From Escherichia phage KW1E_UTAR, in sequence record MZ506873: a DNA stretch of 45,161 bases. One strand, written 5' to 3'. The stretch's first letter is position 1. Every line of letters starts with the position of its first letter. Of this stretch, positions 10,826 to 39,432 are shown in pieces. The notes beneath the pieces are model-generated. The model ran no database searches. It worked only from the letters and a program-made list of their open reading frames with translations, and had not been told where the DNA came from. A program made the position numbers and the translations under genes.

Positions 10826-11121
10826 TTAAGACAATACAGCATAGACGCGGCGCGCGCAACGTTCCGACGTCTAAAACATGCATATTACGACCTCACTATC
10901 AGTATGTTGTTTAACCACAGTAAGACAAAAATCCCAAAAGTGGCCCGATATCAATGACTTACGCGTGTCTTAACTTTCCGCCCCCTAATAAATAAAAACA
11001 AGTAAGACAAAACACCTCACGCGTACACTTAACTACTATATATTCCACCCTTGAGGGGTGGATATATATTAGTAGTGTGTAATAAGTGCATCTTGAGGAA
11101 AACAGACAGTCTTGTCTTAAC
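10826..11121. repeat. Cluster of five TAAGACA/TGTCTTA iteron-like repeats in an AT-rich divergent intergenic region
   Basis: TAAGACA at 10827, 10921, 11003; reverse complement at 10966, 11113; palindrome CCACCCttgagGGGTGG at 11045-11061. Confidence 0.6.
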
Positions 11122-11152
11122 TGTTCGACAAAGTAGAATCATACCTCAGTCG

Positions 11153-11161
11153 TGATATAAT
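11153..11161 (+). promoter_or_regulatory. extended -10 promoter element (TGaTATAAT)
   Basis: Perfect TATAAT at 11156-11161 preceded by TG at 11153-11154; about 22 nt upstream of the ATG at 11184. Confidence 0.4.
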
Positions 11162-11183: not shown

Positions 11184-11696
11184 ATGTCAGACGAAATTAA
11201 ACACGTAACGAAGCGCGGAGTCGGAAGGCAGTTAACCTACACTGACGACGTGCCTGAACGCCTCACAGACTTCTTCGACCGTGATGTGGATGAATTCATC
11301 GTCCATAACTTCACGACCGCTGAGAAGTCGAACTATCGCGTCAAGCCCATCCCTACACTGGCAGGGTTCTGTCGCGAACTGGGTATCGCACCGTCAACGC
11401 TGCACAGATGGATGTCCGTCGAATCGCAACTGACACAGGAGCAGCGCGATGAATTGTGCAATGCTTACTCACGCGCCCGCACGCTACAGGAAAATATCGT
11501 CACCCAGATCGGCATGATGACTAATGGCACGTTCGCCGCTTTCATGCTGAAATGTAACTTCGGATGGCGTGACAACACGGAAGTGAAGACCGACGAGAAC
11601 GTGAAGCCTATCCGTGTCAAGATCGTCAGCGAACGACCTGTCGATGTAGACATCCAGACCACAGAACAGAAACCGATCGAGTGGGGTGATGACTGA
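11184..11696 (+). CDS. terminase small subunit-like HTH protein (tentative)
   Basis: VKPIPTLAGFCRELGIAPSTLHRWM HTH pattern resembles TerS families; start ATG 11184 with AGGAGG 7 nt upstream. Confidence 0.5.
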   Translation: MSDEIKHVTKRGVGRQLTYTDDVPERLTDFFDRDVDEFIVHNFTTAEKSNYRVKPIPTLAGFCRELGIAPSTLHRWMSVESQLTQEQRDELCNAYSRARTLQENIVTQIGMMTNGTFAAFMLKCNFGWRDNTEVKTDENVKPIRVKIVSERPVDVDIQTTEQKPIEWGDD

Positions 11697-11788
11697 TGCG
11701 CTGGCTTAAGATGGCGTTCATGCTGTGGTCAGGCTTCGCTACCGGGTTCACATTACGCATACTAATCAACTGGGGATTCAACCTATGA
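11696..11788 (+). CDS. 30-aa hydrophobic micro-protein (MRWLKMAFMLWSGFATGFTLRILINWGFNL)
   Basis: Not in ORF track (under 60 aa); ATGA overlaps with both flanking genes imply translational coupling. Confidence 0.35.
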   Translation: MRWLKMAFMLWSGFATGFTLRILINWGFNL

Positions 11789-12240
11789 CCACCGCAAAGA
11801 AGTTAACCAAAGCACAGAAGGCTGACCTGGCTGTCAGCGAAACGAAGGCACTGTCCGGTCATCACGTAGCCCTGGCTGGCGGTACGCTGATCGGAGCTTC
11901 GATCTCTGTCGATCCAGACGCGCAGATCAAGTCCGAGATCCTTAACGGGATCGACCAGGCGCAGCAGCGCGCGACCGAAGAGTTCGAAGCGGAAGTTCTC
12001 CACATCCTGGAAGGCGTCAGTCGTGGGGCGGTAGCCACCATCACCGGGGACCTGAAGCGCGGCTTCCTCCGTGACCGCCACAACAATGACCATCCGAACA
12101 AGCTGGTCGTGGCGCTGGTGGAACACGGCCTTCTCGATCCTGGCTGGTATCGCGGCGTCATGATCCCCACATCGATCTACCATCTGCGCATCACCGATGC
12201 CGGGCGCGACTACCTGGCTGGCGTGAAGGCTGACGGCTGA
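11785..12240 (+). CDS. hypothetical protein
   Basis: ORF-track frame 11725..12240; start chosen at ATG 11785 overlapping the micro-ORF stop. Confidence 0.5.
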   Translation: MTTAKKLTKAQKADLAVSETKALSGHHVALAGGTLIGASISVDPDAQIKSEILNGIDQAQQRATEEFEAEVLHILEGVSRGAVATITGDLKRGFLRDRHNNDHPNKLVVALVEHGLLDPGWYRGVMIPTSIYHLRITDAGRDYLAGVKADG

Positions 12241-12260
12241 CGCGACGCGAGAAGAAAACA

Positions 12261-12284
12261 GGCTGCCTCTGGGTGGCCTTTTTT
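12261..12284 (+). terminator. terminator candidate
   Basis: GGCTGCC-tctg-GGTGGCC stem with two G-U pairs followed by TTTTTT. Confidence 0.45.
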
Positions 12285-12322: not shown

Positions 12323-12351
12323 TTGCAGTGGTGATAGCTATGTCGTAATAT
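12323..12351 (+). promoter_or_regulatory. sigma70-like promoter (TTGCAG-N17-TAATAT)
   Basis: Hexamers and 17-nt spacer read directly; upstream of the gene at 12389. Confidence 0.5.
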
Positions 12352-12388
12352 GTATTCAACGAAACGAAACAACCAAAGGAAAACGAAA

Positions 12389-12655
12389 ATGACCACAGCA
12401 GAACGCATTGCCAAAGTTTGGAACGCAAGCCGTAACGAAGACCTGAACGCTATCGCAGCGCTGGAAATCGTCATCAACACTTCGTTCGGCGCTGGCAAGT
12501 CAAGCCTGTCAGACATCGCACGAATCAGCATTCACAACATGGAAGTGACCTATCTGGACGGCTCCATCCTGACCGTTCTGGACCATTCAGCGGCGTGTGA
12601 AGTTGGGCTTACTGAATTCAGCTACGCATTCAAGGCGCAGGCTAAAGCCTGTTAA
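12389..12655 (+). CDS. hypothetical protein
   Basis: ORF-track frame 12350..12655; start chosen at ATG 12389 after AAAGGAAAA. Confidence 0.5.
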   Translation: MTTAERIAKVWNASRNEDLNAIAALEIVINTSFGAGKSSLSDIARISIHNMEVTYLDGSILTVLDHSAACEVGLTEFSYAFKAQAKAC

Positions 12656-14940: not shown

Positions 14941-15237
14941 ATGGCAAGAACGAAGGCTTTATCCGTACTCACGAACGCGCAGGTCTACACGTTGCGCCGC
15001 CTGGCCTCTGGTCGGTCGTACATGTGTCAGGGCAACGGGAAGCGAGCATTCGAGCGCCGCAAGGAATACCGCGTAGGCTTCGACGATGTGAACGCGCCGT
15101 CAATCCCGCCACTGATTCGGAAGGGACTCGCCAGGATTGACCCGCGCTACACCAACCCGAACCCGACCAGCTATTACCCGGTAGTTCTGACCGTGGAAGG
15201 CGTCAAGGCAGCAAAAGAGGCGGTGATTAATGATTAA
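14941..15237 (+). CDS. hypothetical protein
   Basis: ORF-track frame 14932..15237; start chosen at ATG 14941 after AGGAG. Confidence 0.5.
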   Translation: MARTKALSVLTNAQVYTLRRLASGRSYMCQGNGKRAFERRKEYRVGFDDVNAPSIPPLIRKGLARIDPRYTNPNPTSYYPVVLTVEGVKAAKEAVIND

Positions 15238-15949
15238 GCGCATGGTCATCTGGTCACTGTTCGACGGCTCCGGCTACGCGGTGAAGGACTACGCTGAAGC
15301 GGGCCACATCTGCTTTTGTGTCAACGCGGACGATGCCGACCACGGCGACTACACCAACCTGAACGCCAGGATCGAACACCACAACATTCACTACGTGAAC
15401 CGCTGGATCGACAAGGAGTTCTTTGACGACGCGGTCGCCGGGCTTATCCCTGAACTGGGTAAGCCGGACCTTATCCTTGCGTTTCCTCCGTGTACTGACC
15501 TGGCGAACAGCGGGTCACGATCATGGGCGAAGAAGCGCGAAGCGAACCCTGACTTCCAGATCGAGGCGGCACTGACTGCCCGAATCGCTGCCAATCTGGG
15601 GAATTACTTCCAGGTTCCGTGGATGGTAGAGAACCCGGCTGGCATGTTAAGCACTCTCTGGCGCAAGCCGGACGTGTACGTCGAGCCGTGGCACTTTGGG
15701 CGCTACCTGCCTGAAGGCGATGTCCATCCACACTTCCCGGAGTACATCAAAGCGCGCGACGCGTACCCGAAGAAGACGGGCCTTTGGTTCGGTCAGGGGT
15801 TCGTCATGCCACTGGCGAAGCCTGTCCCTATCGGTAAGGGGCTGTCCACTCAGTACAAGAAGTTAGGCGGCAAGTCCACGAAGACGAAGGTTATCCGTTC
15901 ACTCACTCCGCGCGGACTGGCGCGGGCAATCTATGAGGCAAACAAGTGA
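15230..15949 (+). CDS. DNA cytosine-5 methyltransferase-like protein, short and non-canonical
   Basis: Motif I-like LFDGSGY, motif IV-like DLILAFPPCTD (PPC-T instead of PCQ), motif VI-like ENP; 239 aa, no room for a typical target-recognition domain. Confidence 0.5.
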   Translation: MIKRMVIWSLFDGSGYAVKDYAEAGHICFCVNADDADHGDYTNLNARIEHHNIHYVNRWIDKEFFDDAVAGLIPELGKPDLILAFPPCTDLANSGSRSWAKKREANPDFQIEAALTARIAANLGNYFQVPWMVENPAGMLSTLWRKPDVYVEPWHFGRYLPEGDVHPHFPEYIKARDAYPKKTGLWFGQGFVMPLAKPVPIGKGLSTQYKKLGGKSTKTKVIRSLTPRGLARAIYEANK

Positions 15950-16299
15950 AGAAGATCGTCATCGCGCTATCACTGGCGCTGTTAACGTCAACGGCAGCGA
16001 ACGCCGTGGTAATCACTAAACCGCGCGACTACACGCCGGAAAACTCCGGCGCTCTGAACGCGCAAGCAGTAAACATCACTCCGGGGAAGAAGATCGGCTT
16101 CGTCACCTGTGGAGGGAATAACTTCGGCGGCGCTGGCTCGCTGGGGTGCAAGGACTACCAGGCCAAAGACAAACCCACTATTCCGTGGACCGCTTACCCT
16201 GGCTATAGACTGGGCGCAGCTATTCCGGCATCATATCGCGTGACCGGAATCAGCTTCGACAGTTACAACCATTCCGCAACTATCTACTTTGAATATTAA
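15946..16299 (+). CDS. secreted/periplasmic protein with cleavable signal peptide
   Basis: MKKIVIALSLALLTSTAANA signal peptide, two Cys in mature part; GTG start overlapping upstream stop. Confidence 0.55.
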   Translation: MKKIVIALSLALLTSTAANAVVITKPRDYTPENSGALNAQAVNITPGKKIGFVTCGGNNFGGAGSLGCKDYQAKDKPTIPWTAYPGYRLGAAIPASYRVTGISFDSYNHSATIYFEY

Positions 16300-16307
16300 G
16301 GGGCATC

Positions 16308-16514
16308 ATGTTAACGATTATTCTGTGGGTTCTCGGCGCTGTACTCACCTGGCGACTGTGTAGTCGCGACAGCACCACGCCGGAAGGCATCATGAAGTTC
16401 GCGCTGGGAATCCCTGAGCGAATCGCGGCTTCGGCGTTCTGGCCTGTCTGTGCTGCATACGTACTCTATGACGCGGTCATGGAGTGGATCGAAGAACGAC
16501 GCAATCGCCCGTAA
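16308..16514 (+). CDS. small membrane protein
   Basis: 68 aa, hydrophobic N-terminus MLTIILWVLGAVLTW. Confidence 0.45.
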   Translation: MLTIILWVLGAVLTWRLCSRDSTTPEGIMKFALGIPERIAASAFWPVCAAYVLYDAVMEWIEERRNRP

Positions 16515-16633
16515 TGGCGAAGCTGAAGTCCTGGGCGGTCAGGCATAAGTCGGGCCGCATATTGTTCATCACCAACAGCAAGCGGACCGCAATGAACCGC
16601 CTGTCGATGGGCTGGAAGGTAACGAGACAATGA
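16514..16633 (+). CDS. 39-aa basic micro-protein (tentative)
   Basis: Hand-translated MAKLKSWAVRHKSGRILFITNSKRTAMNRLSMGWKVTRQ; coupled by TAATG and ATGA overlaps. Confidence 0.3.
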   Translation: MAKLKSWAVRHKSGRILFITNSKRTAMNRLSMGWKVTRQ

Positions 16634-16803
16634 AGGCTCTGTTCTGGATCGTGGTTTTCGGTCTACTGTTCTTAATGGCTGGCCTTGAGTCAAACAGTCG
16701 CCGTGAACGTTGCGAAGTCGACATGGCAAAGCAGCTACACAGCGAAGCCATTTATCAGCATGGTGAATGTATTGTGAAAGGATGGGGCAAGGTTCGACTA
16801 TAG
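16630..16803 (+). CDS. 57-aa small membrane protein (tentative)
   Basis: Hand-translated MKALFWIVVFGLLFLMAGLE...; ATGA overlap with upstream micro-ORF. Confidence 0.35.
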   Translation: MKALFWIVVFGLLFLMAGLESNSRRERCEVDMAKQLHSEAIYQHGECIVKGWGKVRL

Positions 16804-16857: not shown

Positions 16858-18207
16858 ATGTCCACAGTTTCAGACCTGTCCTCATTCACAGAACTGACCC
16901 TTACGCCGCCACAGTGGGAATTCCTACAGCTTGACTGTAAACATCCGGCATTCGTCGCCGGGTTCGGTACTGGCAAATCCCAGACCCTTGCAGTGTCAGC
17001 AGTCATCGACTCATGCGAAGGCGGGGCCGACTCCCTCGTCGCTATCCTGGAACCAACCTTCGACCTGTGCCGCACGATCGCCGTCCCCCGCGTCCAGCAG
17101 ATCCTGTCTGAACTGGGAATCCGATCGAAGTACAACAAGAGCGACAACACGATCTACACGTCACACGGCGGGGTGGGTGACTTCCTGTTCCGCTCAATGG
17201 ATAACCCTTCCCGACTGGTAGGCTGGGAAGCGTACAGCGCACATCTTGACGAACTGGACACCCTGAAGAAGAAGGACGCAAAAAGCGTATGGCTGGCGAT
17301 GATCGGGCGTACCCGACAGACCGTTCGGGAAGTCAGCCTGATGGACTGGCTGCCGACCACACGACCAGCCAACCGCGTCGCCGCTTACTGTACGCCTGAA
17401 GGGTTTAACTTCCTCTATGGGCGATGGGCGAAGGACAAGGACCGCGCGCGTGATGCTGGCTACGGCATGATCCAGGCTGCGTCCATGTCTAACCCGTTCC
17501 TTCCGCCTGGCTACCTGGACAGCTTGCGAGCCAGTTATGACCCGCAACGCTTCCAGGCGTACGCTGAAGGCAGATTCGTCAACCTGAACGGCGGGTCCAT
17601 CTATCACAAGTTCGATCGCAAGCTGAACGGGTGCGACACGACAATCCAACCGGGCGAACCGCTGACCATCGGGCAGGACTTCAACGTCGGCAAAATGGCC
17701 ACTGTTATCTACGTGGACCGCTGGGGGGATGATGGTCTGGAGGAACTCCACGCCGTCGCGGAAATCAAAGACGGAGTAGACACACCGGACGTGATCGAGA
17801 AGTTAACGGCAGCCTATCCGGGCCACGAATTGAACCTGTACCCGGACGCCAGCGGACAGAACACTTCATCGAAGTCCGCTTCCGTGTCAGACGTCGGCCT
17901 GTTCGAAGAGGCTGGCTTCCTGGTGCATGTCCACGGCTCTAACCCACGCGTCAAGGACCGCGTTATCAGCATGAACACCATGATCTGTGACATGAATGGA
18001 CGCCGTCGCCTGAAGGTGAACGAAAAAGCCTGTCCGACGTTTGCAGACTGTCTGGAGCAACAGATCTACGCGGAGAACGGGGAGCCGGACAAGAAGGGGG
18101 GCAAGGACCATATGAACGATGCTGGCGGCTATCCTGTAGTTTATCGCTTCCCTATTATCCGTGATAAGATGGACGCCTCTGACATGACTATCAGATTCGC
18201 ACGATAA
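16858..18207 (+). CDS. terL: terminase large subunit
   Basis: Walker A-like VAGFGTGKSQT near N-terminus, Walker B-like HLDELD, about 450 aa, directly upstream of portal. Confidence 0.85.
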   Translation: MSTVSDLSSFTELTLTPPQWEFLQLDCKHPAFVAGFGTGKSQTLAVSAVIDSCEGGADSLVAILEPTFDLCRTIAVPRVQQILSELGIRSKYNKSDNTIYTSHGGVGDFLFRSMDNPSRLVGWEAYSAHLDELDTLKKKDAKSVWLAMIGRTRQTVREVSLMDWLPTTRPANRVAAYCTPEGFNFLYGRWAKDKDRARDAGYGMIQAASMSNPFLPPGYLDSLRASYDPQRFQAYAEGRFVNLNGGSIYHKFDRKLNGCDTTIQPGEPLTIGQDFNVGKMATVIYVDRWGDDGLEELHAVAEIKDGVDTPDVIEKLTAAYPGHELNLYPDASGQNTSSKSASVSDVGLFEEAGFLVHVHGSNPRVKDRVISMNTMICDMNGRRRLKVNEKACPTFADCLEQQIYAENGEPDKKGGKDHMNDAGGYPVVYRFPIIRDKMDASDMTIRFAR

Positions 18208-39110: not shown

Positions 39111-39139
39111 AAAAAGGGGCCGAAAGGCCCCTATTTTTT
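39109..39139. terminator. bidirectional rho-independent terminator
   Basis: A7-AGGGGCC-gaaa-GGCCCCT-ATTTTTT between convergent tail fibre (+) and replication-block (-) transcription. Confidence 0.65.
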
Positions 39140-39238
39140 ACCGCTCTTTCTGTGCTTCCATTCCGCCCAGAACACGAATCCCATTCCAACGAAGTACGCC
39201 GCGAACAGCCACGCCGTAACAATCAAGAACGGCTTCAT
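39131..39238 (-). CDS. 35-aa hydrophobic micro-protein (MKPFLIVTAWLFAAYFVGMGFVFWAEWKHRKSGKK)
   Basis: Hand-translated; ATGA overlap with the stop of the HTH gene; stop codon inside the terminator hairpin. Confidence 0.35.
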   Translation of the reverse strand: MKPFLIVTAWLFAAYFVGMGFVFWAEWKHRKSGKK

Positions 39239-39432
39239 TCAGTCACCGTGATCACGTCATGCCACTGGCAACCCAGGACGCCGGACAGCTTCAGGCAAGT
39301 CTCAGGTGTAGGGACTTCCTTGCCAGCTTCATACTGGCTAATGCGCGGCTGGCTTACGCCGGACTGGATGGACAGCGCGCGCTGTGACAGACCAGCTTTT
39401 TCGCGCAGCTCTTTAATGTTAGTGGTGATCAT
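39235..39432 (-). CDS. XRE-family HTH transcriptional regulator (Cro/CI-like)
   Basis: LREKAGLSQRALSIQSGVSQPRISQYEAG is a classic XRE helix-turn-helix. Confidence 0.7.
   Translation of the reverse strand: MITTNIKELREKAGLSQRALSIQSGVSQPRISQYEAGKEVPTPETCLKLSGVLGCQWHDVITVTE

Follow-up and report, generated by a model that had tools for sequence, protein, structure and literature searches.

The subject of this report is a micro-gene in the 45,161-bp genome of Escherichia phage KW1E_UTAR (sequence record MZ506873), which was analysed at its full length and is called the window below. The micro-gene is an open reading frame (ORF) of 30 codons lying in a slot between the gene for the small terminase, terS, and a gene for a 151-residue protein. 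The sequence comparisons presented here point, with a probability of roughly 60%, to a real, translated, non-essential accessory gene that moves as a cassette and codes for a single-helix inner-membrane micro-protein. The nearest GenBank relatives of KW1E_UTAR are the Klebsiella phages vB_KM5a1-KLB22 (~90% identity; hereafter KLB22) and KLB16 (~78%), both of which have been placed in 'Ca. Mavericviridae' (PMC11845039). A literature search on KW1E_UTAR itself found nothing. The following features make up the locus:

11184-11696, plus strand: gene for TerS (Pfam GP3_package, E=1.7e-7; PHROG 3064, terminase, E=1e-22)
11683-11690, plus strand: Shine-Dalgarno (SD)-like sequence GGGGTGAT of the micro-ORF, within the final TerS codons (anti-SD duplex −8.4 kcal/mol)
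11696-11788, plus strand: micro-ORF, called allele b, with ATG at 11696-11698, 30 sense codons and TGA at 11786-11788; product MRWLKMAFMLWSGFATGFTLRILINWGFNL
11772-11776, plus strand: weak SD GGGGA of the 151-residue gene, inside the 3' end of the micro-ORF (−5.5 kcal/mol)
11785-12240, plus strand: gene for the 151-residue protein, chained translationally to the micro-ORF and with the conserved N-terminus MTTAKKLTK

A preliminary description of this DNA had reported a 30-codon ORF at 11696-11788 with ATGA overlaps on both sides. The ORF is borne out by the sequence and the ORF list, and it appears to be unannotated in KW1E_UTAR. The downstream junction is a true ATGA, in which the ATG at 11785 of the next gene overlaps the TGA at 11786-11788, but the upstream one is TGATG, with one nucleotide common to the TerS stop (TGA 11694-11696) and the ATG of the micro-ORF. 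The SD sequence GGGGUGAU (11683-11690) ends 5 nt ahead of this ATG, 7 nt from the paired core, which gives this short frame (≤50 codons) a credible start codon and ribosome-binding site. The C-terminus of TerS, ...EWGDD*, is invariant (W-G-D-D in the alignment), and its codons encode the SD for whichever gene comes next. In phages where the slot is empty, the identical SD sequence drives the 151-residue gene directly, while the SD for the downstream gene is supplied by each cassette allele itself.

It is important to point out that the overlaps by themselves are weak evidence for a gene, and that the comparison with relatives decides. Stop/start overlaps are the norm in this type of genome, and for an insert of 89 nt the chance of the right length class (1/3) together with an open frame over 29 codons (~0.25) is ~0.08. 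The overlaps had been presented as a strong sign of a translated, coupled gene; the coupled gene is indeed supported by the comparison, but the overlaps alone would not carry it at that level of chance, and it is because of the comparative evidence that we judge the micro-ORF to be beyond chance. Two other readings of the same letters were discarded. A frameshift fusion between TerS and the peptide is ruled out by a stop at 11690-92 in the frame of the micro-ORF and by the lack of a slippery site, and an antisense 51-residue ORF with a TTG start (11626-11781) cannot exist in the relatives with an empty slot.

Junction sequences were gathered from GenBank phages, IMG/VR, metagenomes and Logan/ENA assemblies, and each junction was read. 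In KLB22, an IMG/VR contig and contigs L022, L023, L026, L029 and L030, the slot is empty, that is, the terS stop overlaps the ATG of the 151-residue gene directly. The empty junction TAATGACC occurs in KLB22, L003, L022, L023, L026, L029 and L030, and the flanks are up to 99% identical to those of carriers. The KLB22 junction, TGATGACC, differs from the window by the precise absence of 89 nt. A gene is thus found between two conserved genes and is precisely missing from close relatives. Allele b is carried by the window and by a KLB16-like phage present in two independent assemblies from the Sequence Read Archive (L035 and L036), and since both carry the same cassette, the insert is not an assembly artefact.

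Other occupants of the slot are allele c (31 residues, MSAWTIAALVVGAFALGMAVMVLIVCNCMKG, five contigs), allele d (30 residues, MDAWTVAALMVGAFALGMAVMVLIICNKVM, L027/L028, called as a gene on seven contigs) and allele e (37 residues, in KLB16, unannotated). Phages with identical TerS hold two other hydrophobic peptides in the slot, or nothing, as in KLB22. L033 has a 43-residue CxxC...CxxC mini-protein there, so that the slot evidently accepts other kinds of micro-gene; this zinc-ribbon-like ORF, MTILKCVACGHEHVSADRTEARGVSYTMCPICRCGGYTKKKVKP, lies at 178-310 of the contig (Logan SRR10023924) and has TAATG and ATGA junctions. Non-coding spacers of 62-64 nt (L031, L032, L037-41) or 3 nt (L034) are also found. 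In the Serratia phage Susuwatari, an 86-nt insert with TGATG and ATGA junctions encodes an annotated hydrophobic peptide of 29 residues (URC22416.1), and the sister phages Smarc2 and ChibiTotoro, whose flanks are 91-95% identical, are without it. All six coding fillers (b, c, d, e, the Susuwatari peptide and the zinc-ribbon ORF) start at T[AG]ATG and are open to the next start, while the ATG of this junction is absent from the non-coding fillers.

Conservation of the frame in related phages had been proposed as a check, and the outcome is mixed: the frame is kept in L035/L036 and has a homologue in KLB16, but KLB22, the closest GenBank relative, is without the ORF. Since the nearest relatives do without it, any function of the micro-ORF has to be dispensable. 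To regard loss of the frame in relatives as a refutation, as had been suggested, could be misleading here, because it is the closest relative that is without the ORF and more distant ones that keep it.

We now turn to the substitutions within the frame. The window and L035/L036 differ within allele b by four synonymous changes and one non-synonymous change (R21H), corresponding to pS 0.214 and pN 0.015 (Fisher p=0.006). The same five changes alter four and three residues, respectively, when read in the other two frames, both of which contain stops. Alleles c and d differ at 13 of 27 comparable codons, nine of them by synonymous changes only and four by conservative replacements (S/D, I/V, V/M, V/I), with a dN/dS of 0.12 (p=3.5e-4). 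Finally, the window peptide and the 37-residue KLB16 peptide align with a Smith-Waterman z of 6.0 (p=2e-4 against composition-preserving shuffles), while the nucleotide identity of the core is 47% and the identities at the codon positions are 0.35/0.80/0.25. Purifying selection on the frame is hence seen in relatives within allele b, between c and d, and between b and e. The synonymous excess in b and c/d together with the homology of b and e argue for a translated product whose sequence matters, and we consider it very probable, from these sequence data, that the micro-ORF is translated and under selection. The earlier proposal of a translated, coupled gene thus gains indirect but good support from the conservation of the frame, the KLB16 homologue, the low c/d dN/dS and the strong SD.

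These substitutions also bear on a simpler explanation, in which the open frame only passes ribosomes from terS to the 151-residue gene, the peptide being functionless and its hydrophobicity a result of composition. The overlaps on both sides match what such a relay needs, the downstream SD is weak enough (−5.5 kcal/mol) for coupling to matter, and an open frame of the right length has the chance of ~0.08 given above. The slot moreover tolerates the non-hydrophobic zinc-ribbon ORF and non-coding spacers, and the hydrophobicity of allele b is marginal. However, a relay does not constrain amino acids, and yet the synonymous excess in b is 4:1 and the dN/dS of c/d is 0.12; the sequence motif of the peptide (see below) is kept between b and e at 47% nucleotide identity; and hydrophobic helices make up five of the six independent ORFs that fill the slot, three of them above all 128 control ORFs. 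As a relay the insert would add nothing, because the empty junction already couples perfectly. We find this explanation improbable.

The manner in which the slot is filled and emptied can be followed in the flanks. One feature is central here:

11695-11822, plus strand: recombination tract of ~126 bp, 92-96% identical between the window and L035, with flanks of 45-85% identity

Besides the cassette, the tract takes in the TGA stop and ~12 codons at the start of the 151-residue gene, and its switch points, taken from the alignment and from sliding identity, are at about 11690-95 and 11817-23. The flanks of L035 are 95-100% identical to KLB16. Because identity to the window jumps only inside the tract, we interpret it as a patch of short homologous recombination. 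Three groups of flank haplotypes can be distinguished, with the slot states b, d and empty in the first, empty and c in the second, and b and e in the third; since every group has at least two states, gain, loss or replacement must have been repeated. The carrier L019 and the non-carrier KLB22, for example, have flanks that are 98-99% identical. The G+C content is 0.50 in the slot and 0.53-0.58 in the flanks.

The comparisons show that the slot at the terS stop is a hot spot for the gain, loss and swap of micro-genes by short-tract homologous recombination, for which the conserved gene ends on either side serve as arms, namely the 3' end of terS (TGGGGNGAYGAYTRR) and the 5' end of the gene that follows (ATGACNACNGCNAARAAR). 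The same pattern of micro-gene turnover occurs independently in Serratia phages. Insertion at a specific site or with target-site duplication was also considered and rejected, as the cassette ends have only ATG in common and L035 is an ordinary homologous exchange. A blastn search with the 88-nt insert was negative both for E. coli genomes and for GenBank phages, and the insert was accordingly not captured from known host or phage sequence. At 1702-1722 of L034 (Logan SRR18080420), the junction GACGACTAACCTATG equals the remnant expected from deletion of a b-type cassette between ...GACGACT and AACCTATG..., and it may be a deletion scar, on the basis of a 5-nt match. A second island, at ~12364-12447 in the window, is 93-95% identical between the window and L035 and ~40-58% in KLB16; lying at the start of a 101-residue ORF (12350-12655), it may be another mosaic patch.

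Another option is that the insert is a non-coding DNA or RNA element with a part in, for example, packaging, attenuation or processing, and that the ORF is incidental. The 62-64-nt non-coding spacer in the same slot of some relatives would be in line with this, as would the promoter-like TTGACA and hairpin after terS in Webervirus-like relatives. In the latter (L007 and L011-L018, Webervirus-like Klebsiella phages), a conserved TTGACA...TATA-like motif followed by a GGGGCCGGGCAATCCTGCCCC hairpin lies ~15-95 nt past the terS stop, with no ORF. In the window, however, Rfam gives no match at E≤1 for either strand of the slot, promoter and terminator consensus sequences are missing from it, no promoter-like site lies opposite it, and its RNA fold is no more stable than that of shuffled sequences (z=+1.17); for these reasons a non-coding element is unlikely. 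The substitutions are in addition phased by codon, and the b, c/d, e and Susuwatari inserts share no nucleotide similarity, yet each encodes a helix. Taken together with these observations, we find a non-coding role hardly credible.

The predicted product of allele b is one continuous helix spanning residues 2-29 (AlphaFold2 in single-sequence mode, predicted local distance difference test score, pLDDT, 91). The basic residues R2 and K5 are located at the N-terminus, the C-terminus (NWGFNL) is uncharged, and there is no cysteine. W3 and W26 are 23 positions apart, a spacing that fits two membrane interfaces, and since R2 and K5 sit at the N-terminus, an N-in/C-out topology is likely. The hydrophobicity of this allele is borderline: the best 19-residue Kyte-Doolittle mean, 1.46, falls short of the usual 1.6, and the Hessa sum amounts to +2.45 kcal/mol. 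A transmembrane character is clear for the c, d and Susuwatari peptides, with Kyte-Doolittle values of 2.65-2.76 and Hessa values of −2.6 to −3.3, and they exceed 128 of 128 control ORFs in hydrophobicity, while the b and KLB16 peptides are in the top 2-7%. The preliminary description had named the product a single-pass membrane peptide. The helix, the basic N-terminus and the tryptophan spacing make this plausible, but the hydrophobicity of this allele does so only marginally, and from the prediction we consider it probable, with less assurance than for translation, that the peptide is membrane-integral. As no more than five residues fall outside the helix, any activity would have to lie within the bilayer.

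Within this helix there is a pattern of small residues:

11720-11758, plus strand: small-xxx-small motif, codons 9-21 (M-L-W-S-G-F-A-T-G-F-T-L-R), with the core GFATG at 11732-11746

The window peptide reads M9 L10 xx G13 F14 xx G17 F18 xx R21 and the KLB16 peptide VVxxGFxxGFxxS, and W[ST]GF[AS]xGFT is common to the two. [GA]FxxG occurs in all six peptides, with a frequency in shuffled sequences of 1.5-5.6% per peptide. In its mid-helix position, its bulky or beta-branched flanking residues and its spacing (ΦΦxxGFxxGFxx-polar), the motif corresponds to the GxxxG motif of the glycophorin-A type (LIxxGVxxGVxxT), a pattern that was noticed post hoc.

A functional peptide of this kind could also act as an oligomeric pore or depolariser, in the manner of a type I toxin, a viroporin or a holin, that excludes superinfecting phages or tunes lysis via the proton-motive force. 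The size and composition resemble those of TisB, Ibs, Ldr and Fst. Small residues in glycine-zipper-like spacing abound in alleles c and d, the tails outside the membrane are very short, and the Eisenberg values (mean hydrophobicity 0.58, low moment) correspond to the old 'multimeric membrane' class. However, the locus is without the antisense RNA, own promoter or long leader of type I toxin loci. It is also outside the lysis cassette, the holin, endolysin and spanins of KLB22 being annotated in a separate cluster, and the peptide has no charged C-terminal domain typical of holins. Furthermore, the 1:1 coupling of its expression to TerS would be risky for a toxin. We regard a pore as unlikely.

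Sequence databases were searched with the peptides. With tblastn against 50,697 GenBank phages, the 30-residue peptide gave nothing at E≤10 and the KLB16 peptide matched only itself. From 1.84 billion representatives, a phmmer search with the window peptide retrieved just two long proteins (594 and 723 residues, with 4-6 short stretches each), which are repetitive in sequence and regarded as spurious. Nothing significant was obtained for the peptide in Pfam, PHROGs, NCBIfam or PADLOC. In exact-sequence look-ups, allele b and the 151- and 171-residue products of the window were not among the called genes, and the only slot peptides on record as called genes are allele d (7 contigs) and the Susuwatari peptide. 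Scans of IMG/VR with back-translated motifs gave 0 matches for the b motif and 0 for the c/d motif, while a looser b/e motif gave at least 120 matches in GTDB genomes, in unrelated bacteria, which were dismissed as chance.

A number of observations weigh against the accessory-gene reading proposed here. The micro-ORF is missing from the nearest relatives, and the searches yielded neither a database family nor a called homologue. The selection tests have a small base, namely 5 substitutions for allele b and ~15 for c/d. The hydrophobicity of allele b is marginal, with R21 (H in L035) inside the putative span, and among ATG ORFs of the same size in the window, 7% equal or exceed it in hydrophobicity on the Kyte-Doolittle scale and 3% on that of Hessa. 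The [GA]FxxG pattern was spotted post hoc, and membrane helices often contain GxxxG. Finally, to judge from the charge distribution, b/e and c/d may be oriented oppositely in the membrane, which fits a single shared target poorly.

With these points in mind, the accessory gene for a membrane micro-protein is envisaged to work as follows. Ribosomes ending terS at the TGA (11694-96) would re-initiate at the ATG at 11696, or load de novo on the SD, and those ending the micro-ORF at the TGA (11786-88) would re-initiate at the ATG at 11785. By virtue of the overlapping stops and starts, the peptide would be co-produced with TerS and the chain from terS to the 151-residue gene kept intact. The product would be a helix of ~28 residues with R2 and K5 inside and W3 and W26 at the interfaces. 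Its G13xxxG17 face (MLxxGFxxGFxxR) may pack on another transmembrane helix, either a second copy or a host or phage membrane protein, and the packing would modulate the activity of the partner, in the manner of MgtR, AcrZ and bovine papillomavirus (BPV) E5. The last element, namely that the peptide is dispensable and turned over by short-tract recombination, is shown by the comparisons above. Packing with a partner helix, which by analogy with these systems we prefer to a pore, is put forward as a tentative proposal that falls short of even odds.

The turnover of micro-genes in the slot points to a conditional role, and a niche-specific task fits, for example in competition between phages or the exclusion of superinfecting ones, in counter-defence or in the timing of lysis. 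One can speculate further that the terS-stop junction is a dedicated micro-cassette site, here and independently in Serratia phages, for swappable GxxxG-helix peptides of ~30 residues carried on tracts of ~130 bp. The alleles would then bind the transmembrane domains of different host or rival-phage proteins and serve as specificity determinants in conflict, as counterparts of papillomavirus E5 and 'traptamers'. This extension, drawn by analogy, is doubtful.

Concerning the neighbouring genes, the TerS ORF is open from 11160, and its ATG at 11184 has a GGAGG SD (−10.3 kcal/mol) while the ATG at 11160 is without one. On account of the SD energies, and because the same start is annotated in KLB22, 11184 is the more likely start. 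For the 151-residue gene, the ATG at 11785 is taken as the real start because MTTAKKLTK is kept in relatives with and without the micro-ORF, and this conserved N-terminus rules out the GTG at 11725. The 151-residue protein occurs only in this phage group and has no match in Pfam, PHROG, NCBIfam or PADLOC. Its AlphaFold2 model (pLDDT 74.6) has a confident C-terminal alpha/beta domain (residues 70-120, pLDDT ~90), for which structure and fold searches of the model gave no significant match, with weak MarR/MexR-like hits at E~0.5. Two further elements are located outside the genes:

11112-11139, plus strand: promoter-like site upstream of terS (consensus match; the count is not above shuffles)
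12260-12279, plus strand: terminator-like hairpin and T-run after the 151-residue gene (consensus scan; the count is not above shuffles)

The two would suggest a unit of three genes delimited by them, namely terS, the micro-ORF and the 151-residue gene. The distance from terS (11184-11696) to the gene for the large terminase, terL (16858-18207), both on the plus strand, is ~5.2 kb, and by analogy with the annotation of KLB22 it holds ~16 small genes. By the same analogy, these include a C5-cytosine methylase (15230-15949) and, just before terL, three small signal-peptide or membrane proteins (15946-16299, 16308-16514 and 16630-16803). In the Serratia and Webervirus-like relatives, little or nothing separates terS from terL.

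The window contains a second small hydrophobic ORF, at 39131-39238 on the minus strand (35 residues, MKPFLIVTAWLFAAYFVGMGFVFWAEWKHRKSGKK), which has an ATGA overlap with the stop of a 65-residue helix-turn-helix regulator (39235-39432, minus strand). Its KLB22 equivalent, by position and size, seems to be MVRL049; the name given to that gene, 'copper-transporting ATPase', is apparently a wrong label for a bare transmembrane helix.

Genes this small sit at or below the cut-offs of gene callers, and as with the KW1E_UTAR copy, the KLB16 homologue is unannotated. Despite its size, the micro-ORF has the features of a gene that is under selection and is often exchanged horizontally. For annotation, the lesson is that 'gaps' of 60-120 nt beginning with a stop/start overlap should be searched for ORFs. 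A conserved gene end, here the ...EWGDD* codons of terS that double as an SD, can act as a recombination arm and thereby create a hot spot of accessory-gene turnover. If confirmed, the micro-ORF would add a new family to the poorly charted phage micro-proteins, and the near-isogenic phages with b, c, d, e or none would constitute a natural experiment on a bare transmembrane helix during infection.

It remains to compare the micro-ORF with known systems, beginning with its closest counterparts. The KLB16 ORF (PP197198, 6198-6308, minus strand) is a true homologue in the same slot with a basic N-terminus, although it is 7 residues longer, has 9 of the 30 window residues identical (~30%) and ends 4 nt before the next start. 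The Susuwatari peptide (SUSUWATARI_00350, Serratia phage vB_SmaM-Susuwatari) is like the micro-ORF in its slot, junctions, size and single hydrophobic helix, and also in its GFxxG motif and its presence or absence among sister phages. It differs in having no significant similarity to the window peptide (p=0.12) and in its right-hand neighbour, a 50-residue membrane protein followed by terL.

Several small membrane proteins of phages and bacteria have other hallmarks. TisB, IbsC, LdrD and Fst are small hydrophobic type I toxins, while the micro-ORF has neither an antisense RNA nor an independent transcription unit, and its start is coupled to terS. The T7 spanins gp18.5/18.7 are membrane proteins encoded between terS and terL. 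An i-spanin has an N-terminal transmembrane domain and a long periplasmic coiled coil, and an o-spanin has a lipobox cysteine, but the present peptide, with its 30 residues, has no such coiled coil and no cysteine for a lipobox. Holins and pinholins belong to the lysis cassette, have 60-150 residues and carry a charged C-terminal tail, and here too the short peptide with its uncharged C-terminus differs.

Another comparison is with the phage morons, accessory genes inserted between conserved genes of lambdoid and HK97 phages. Like them, the micro-ORF is a dispensable extra gene between conserved genes that is precisely absent from close relatives; however, it has no promoter and terminator of its own and no atypical composition, relies on translational coupling and is far smaller. 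As regards the product, MgtR (30 residues), MgtS (31), AcrZ (49) and KdpF (29) are single-helix peptides that act purely by helix-helix contact with a larger membrane protein. The micro-ORF peptide is alike in being a predicted single helix of ~30 residues, but it is phage-borne and no sequence relationship was found; in NCBIfam there was no match for the window peptide, and for the KLB16 allele only MgtS (E=0.15, 12.2 bits against a cut-off of 35).

BPV E5 is a viral micro-protein that is little more than a transmembrane helix, and LIxxGVxxGVxxT is the dimerisation motif of glycophorin A. Alleles b and e, with [ML][LV]xxGFxxGFxx[R/H/S], have the spacing of the latter. E5 stems from a eukaryotic virus, unlike the phage micro-ORF, and the likeness suggested here is that of a bare transmembrane helix. 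Overall, the micro-ORF represents a new family of sequences in a class that is already known, the phage micro-membrane proteins, and its cassette-like pattern across the population is unusually clear.

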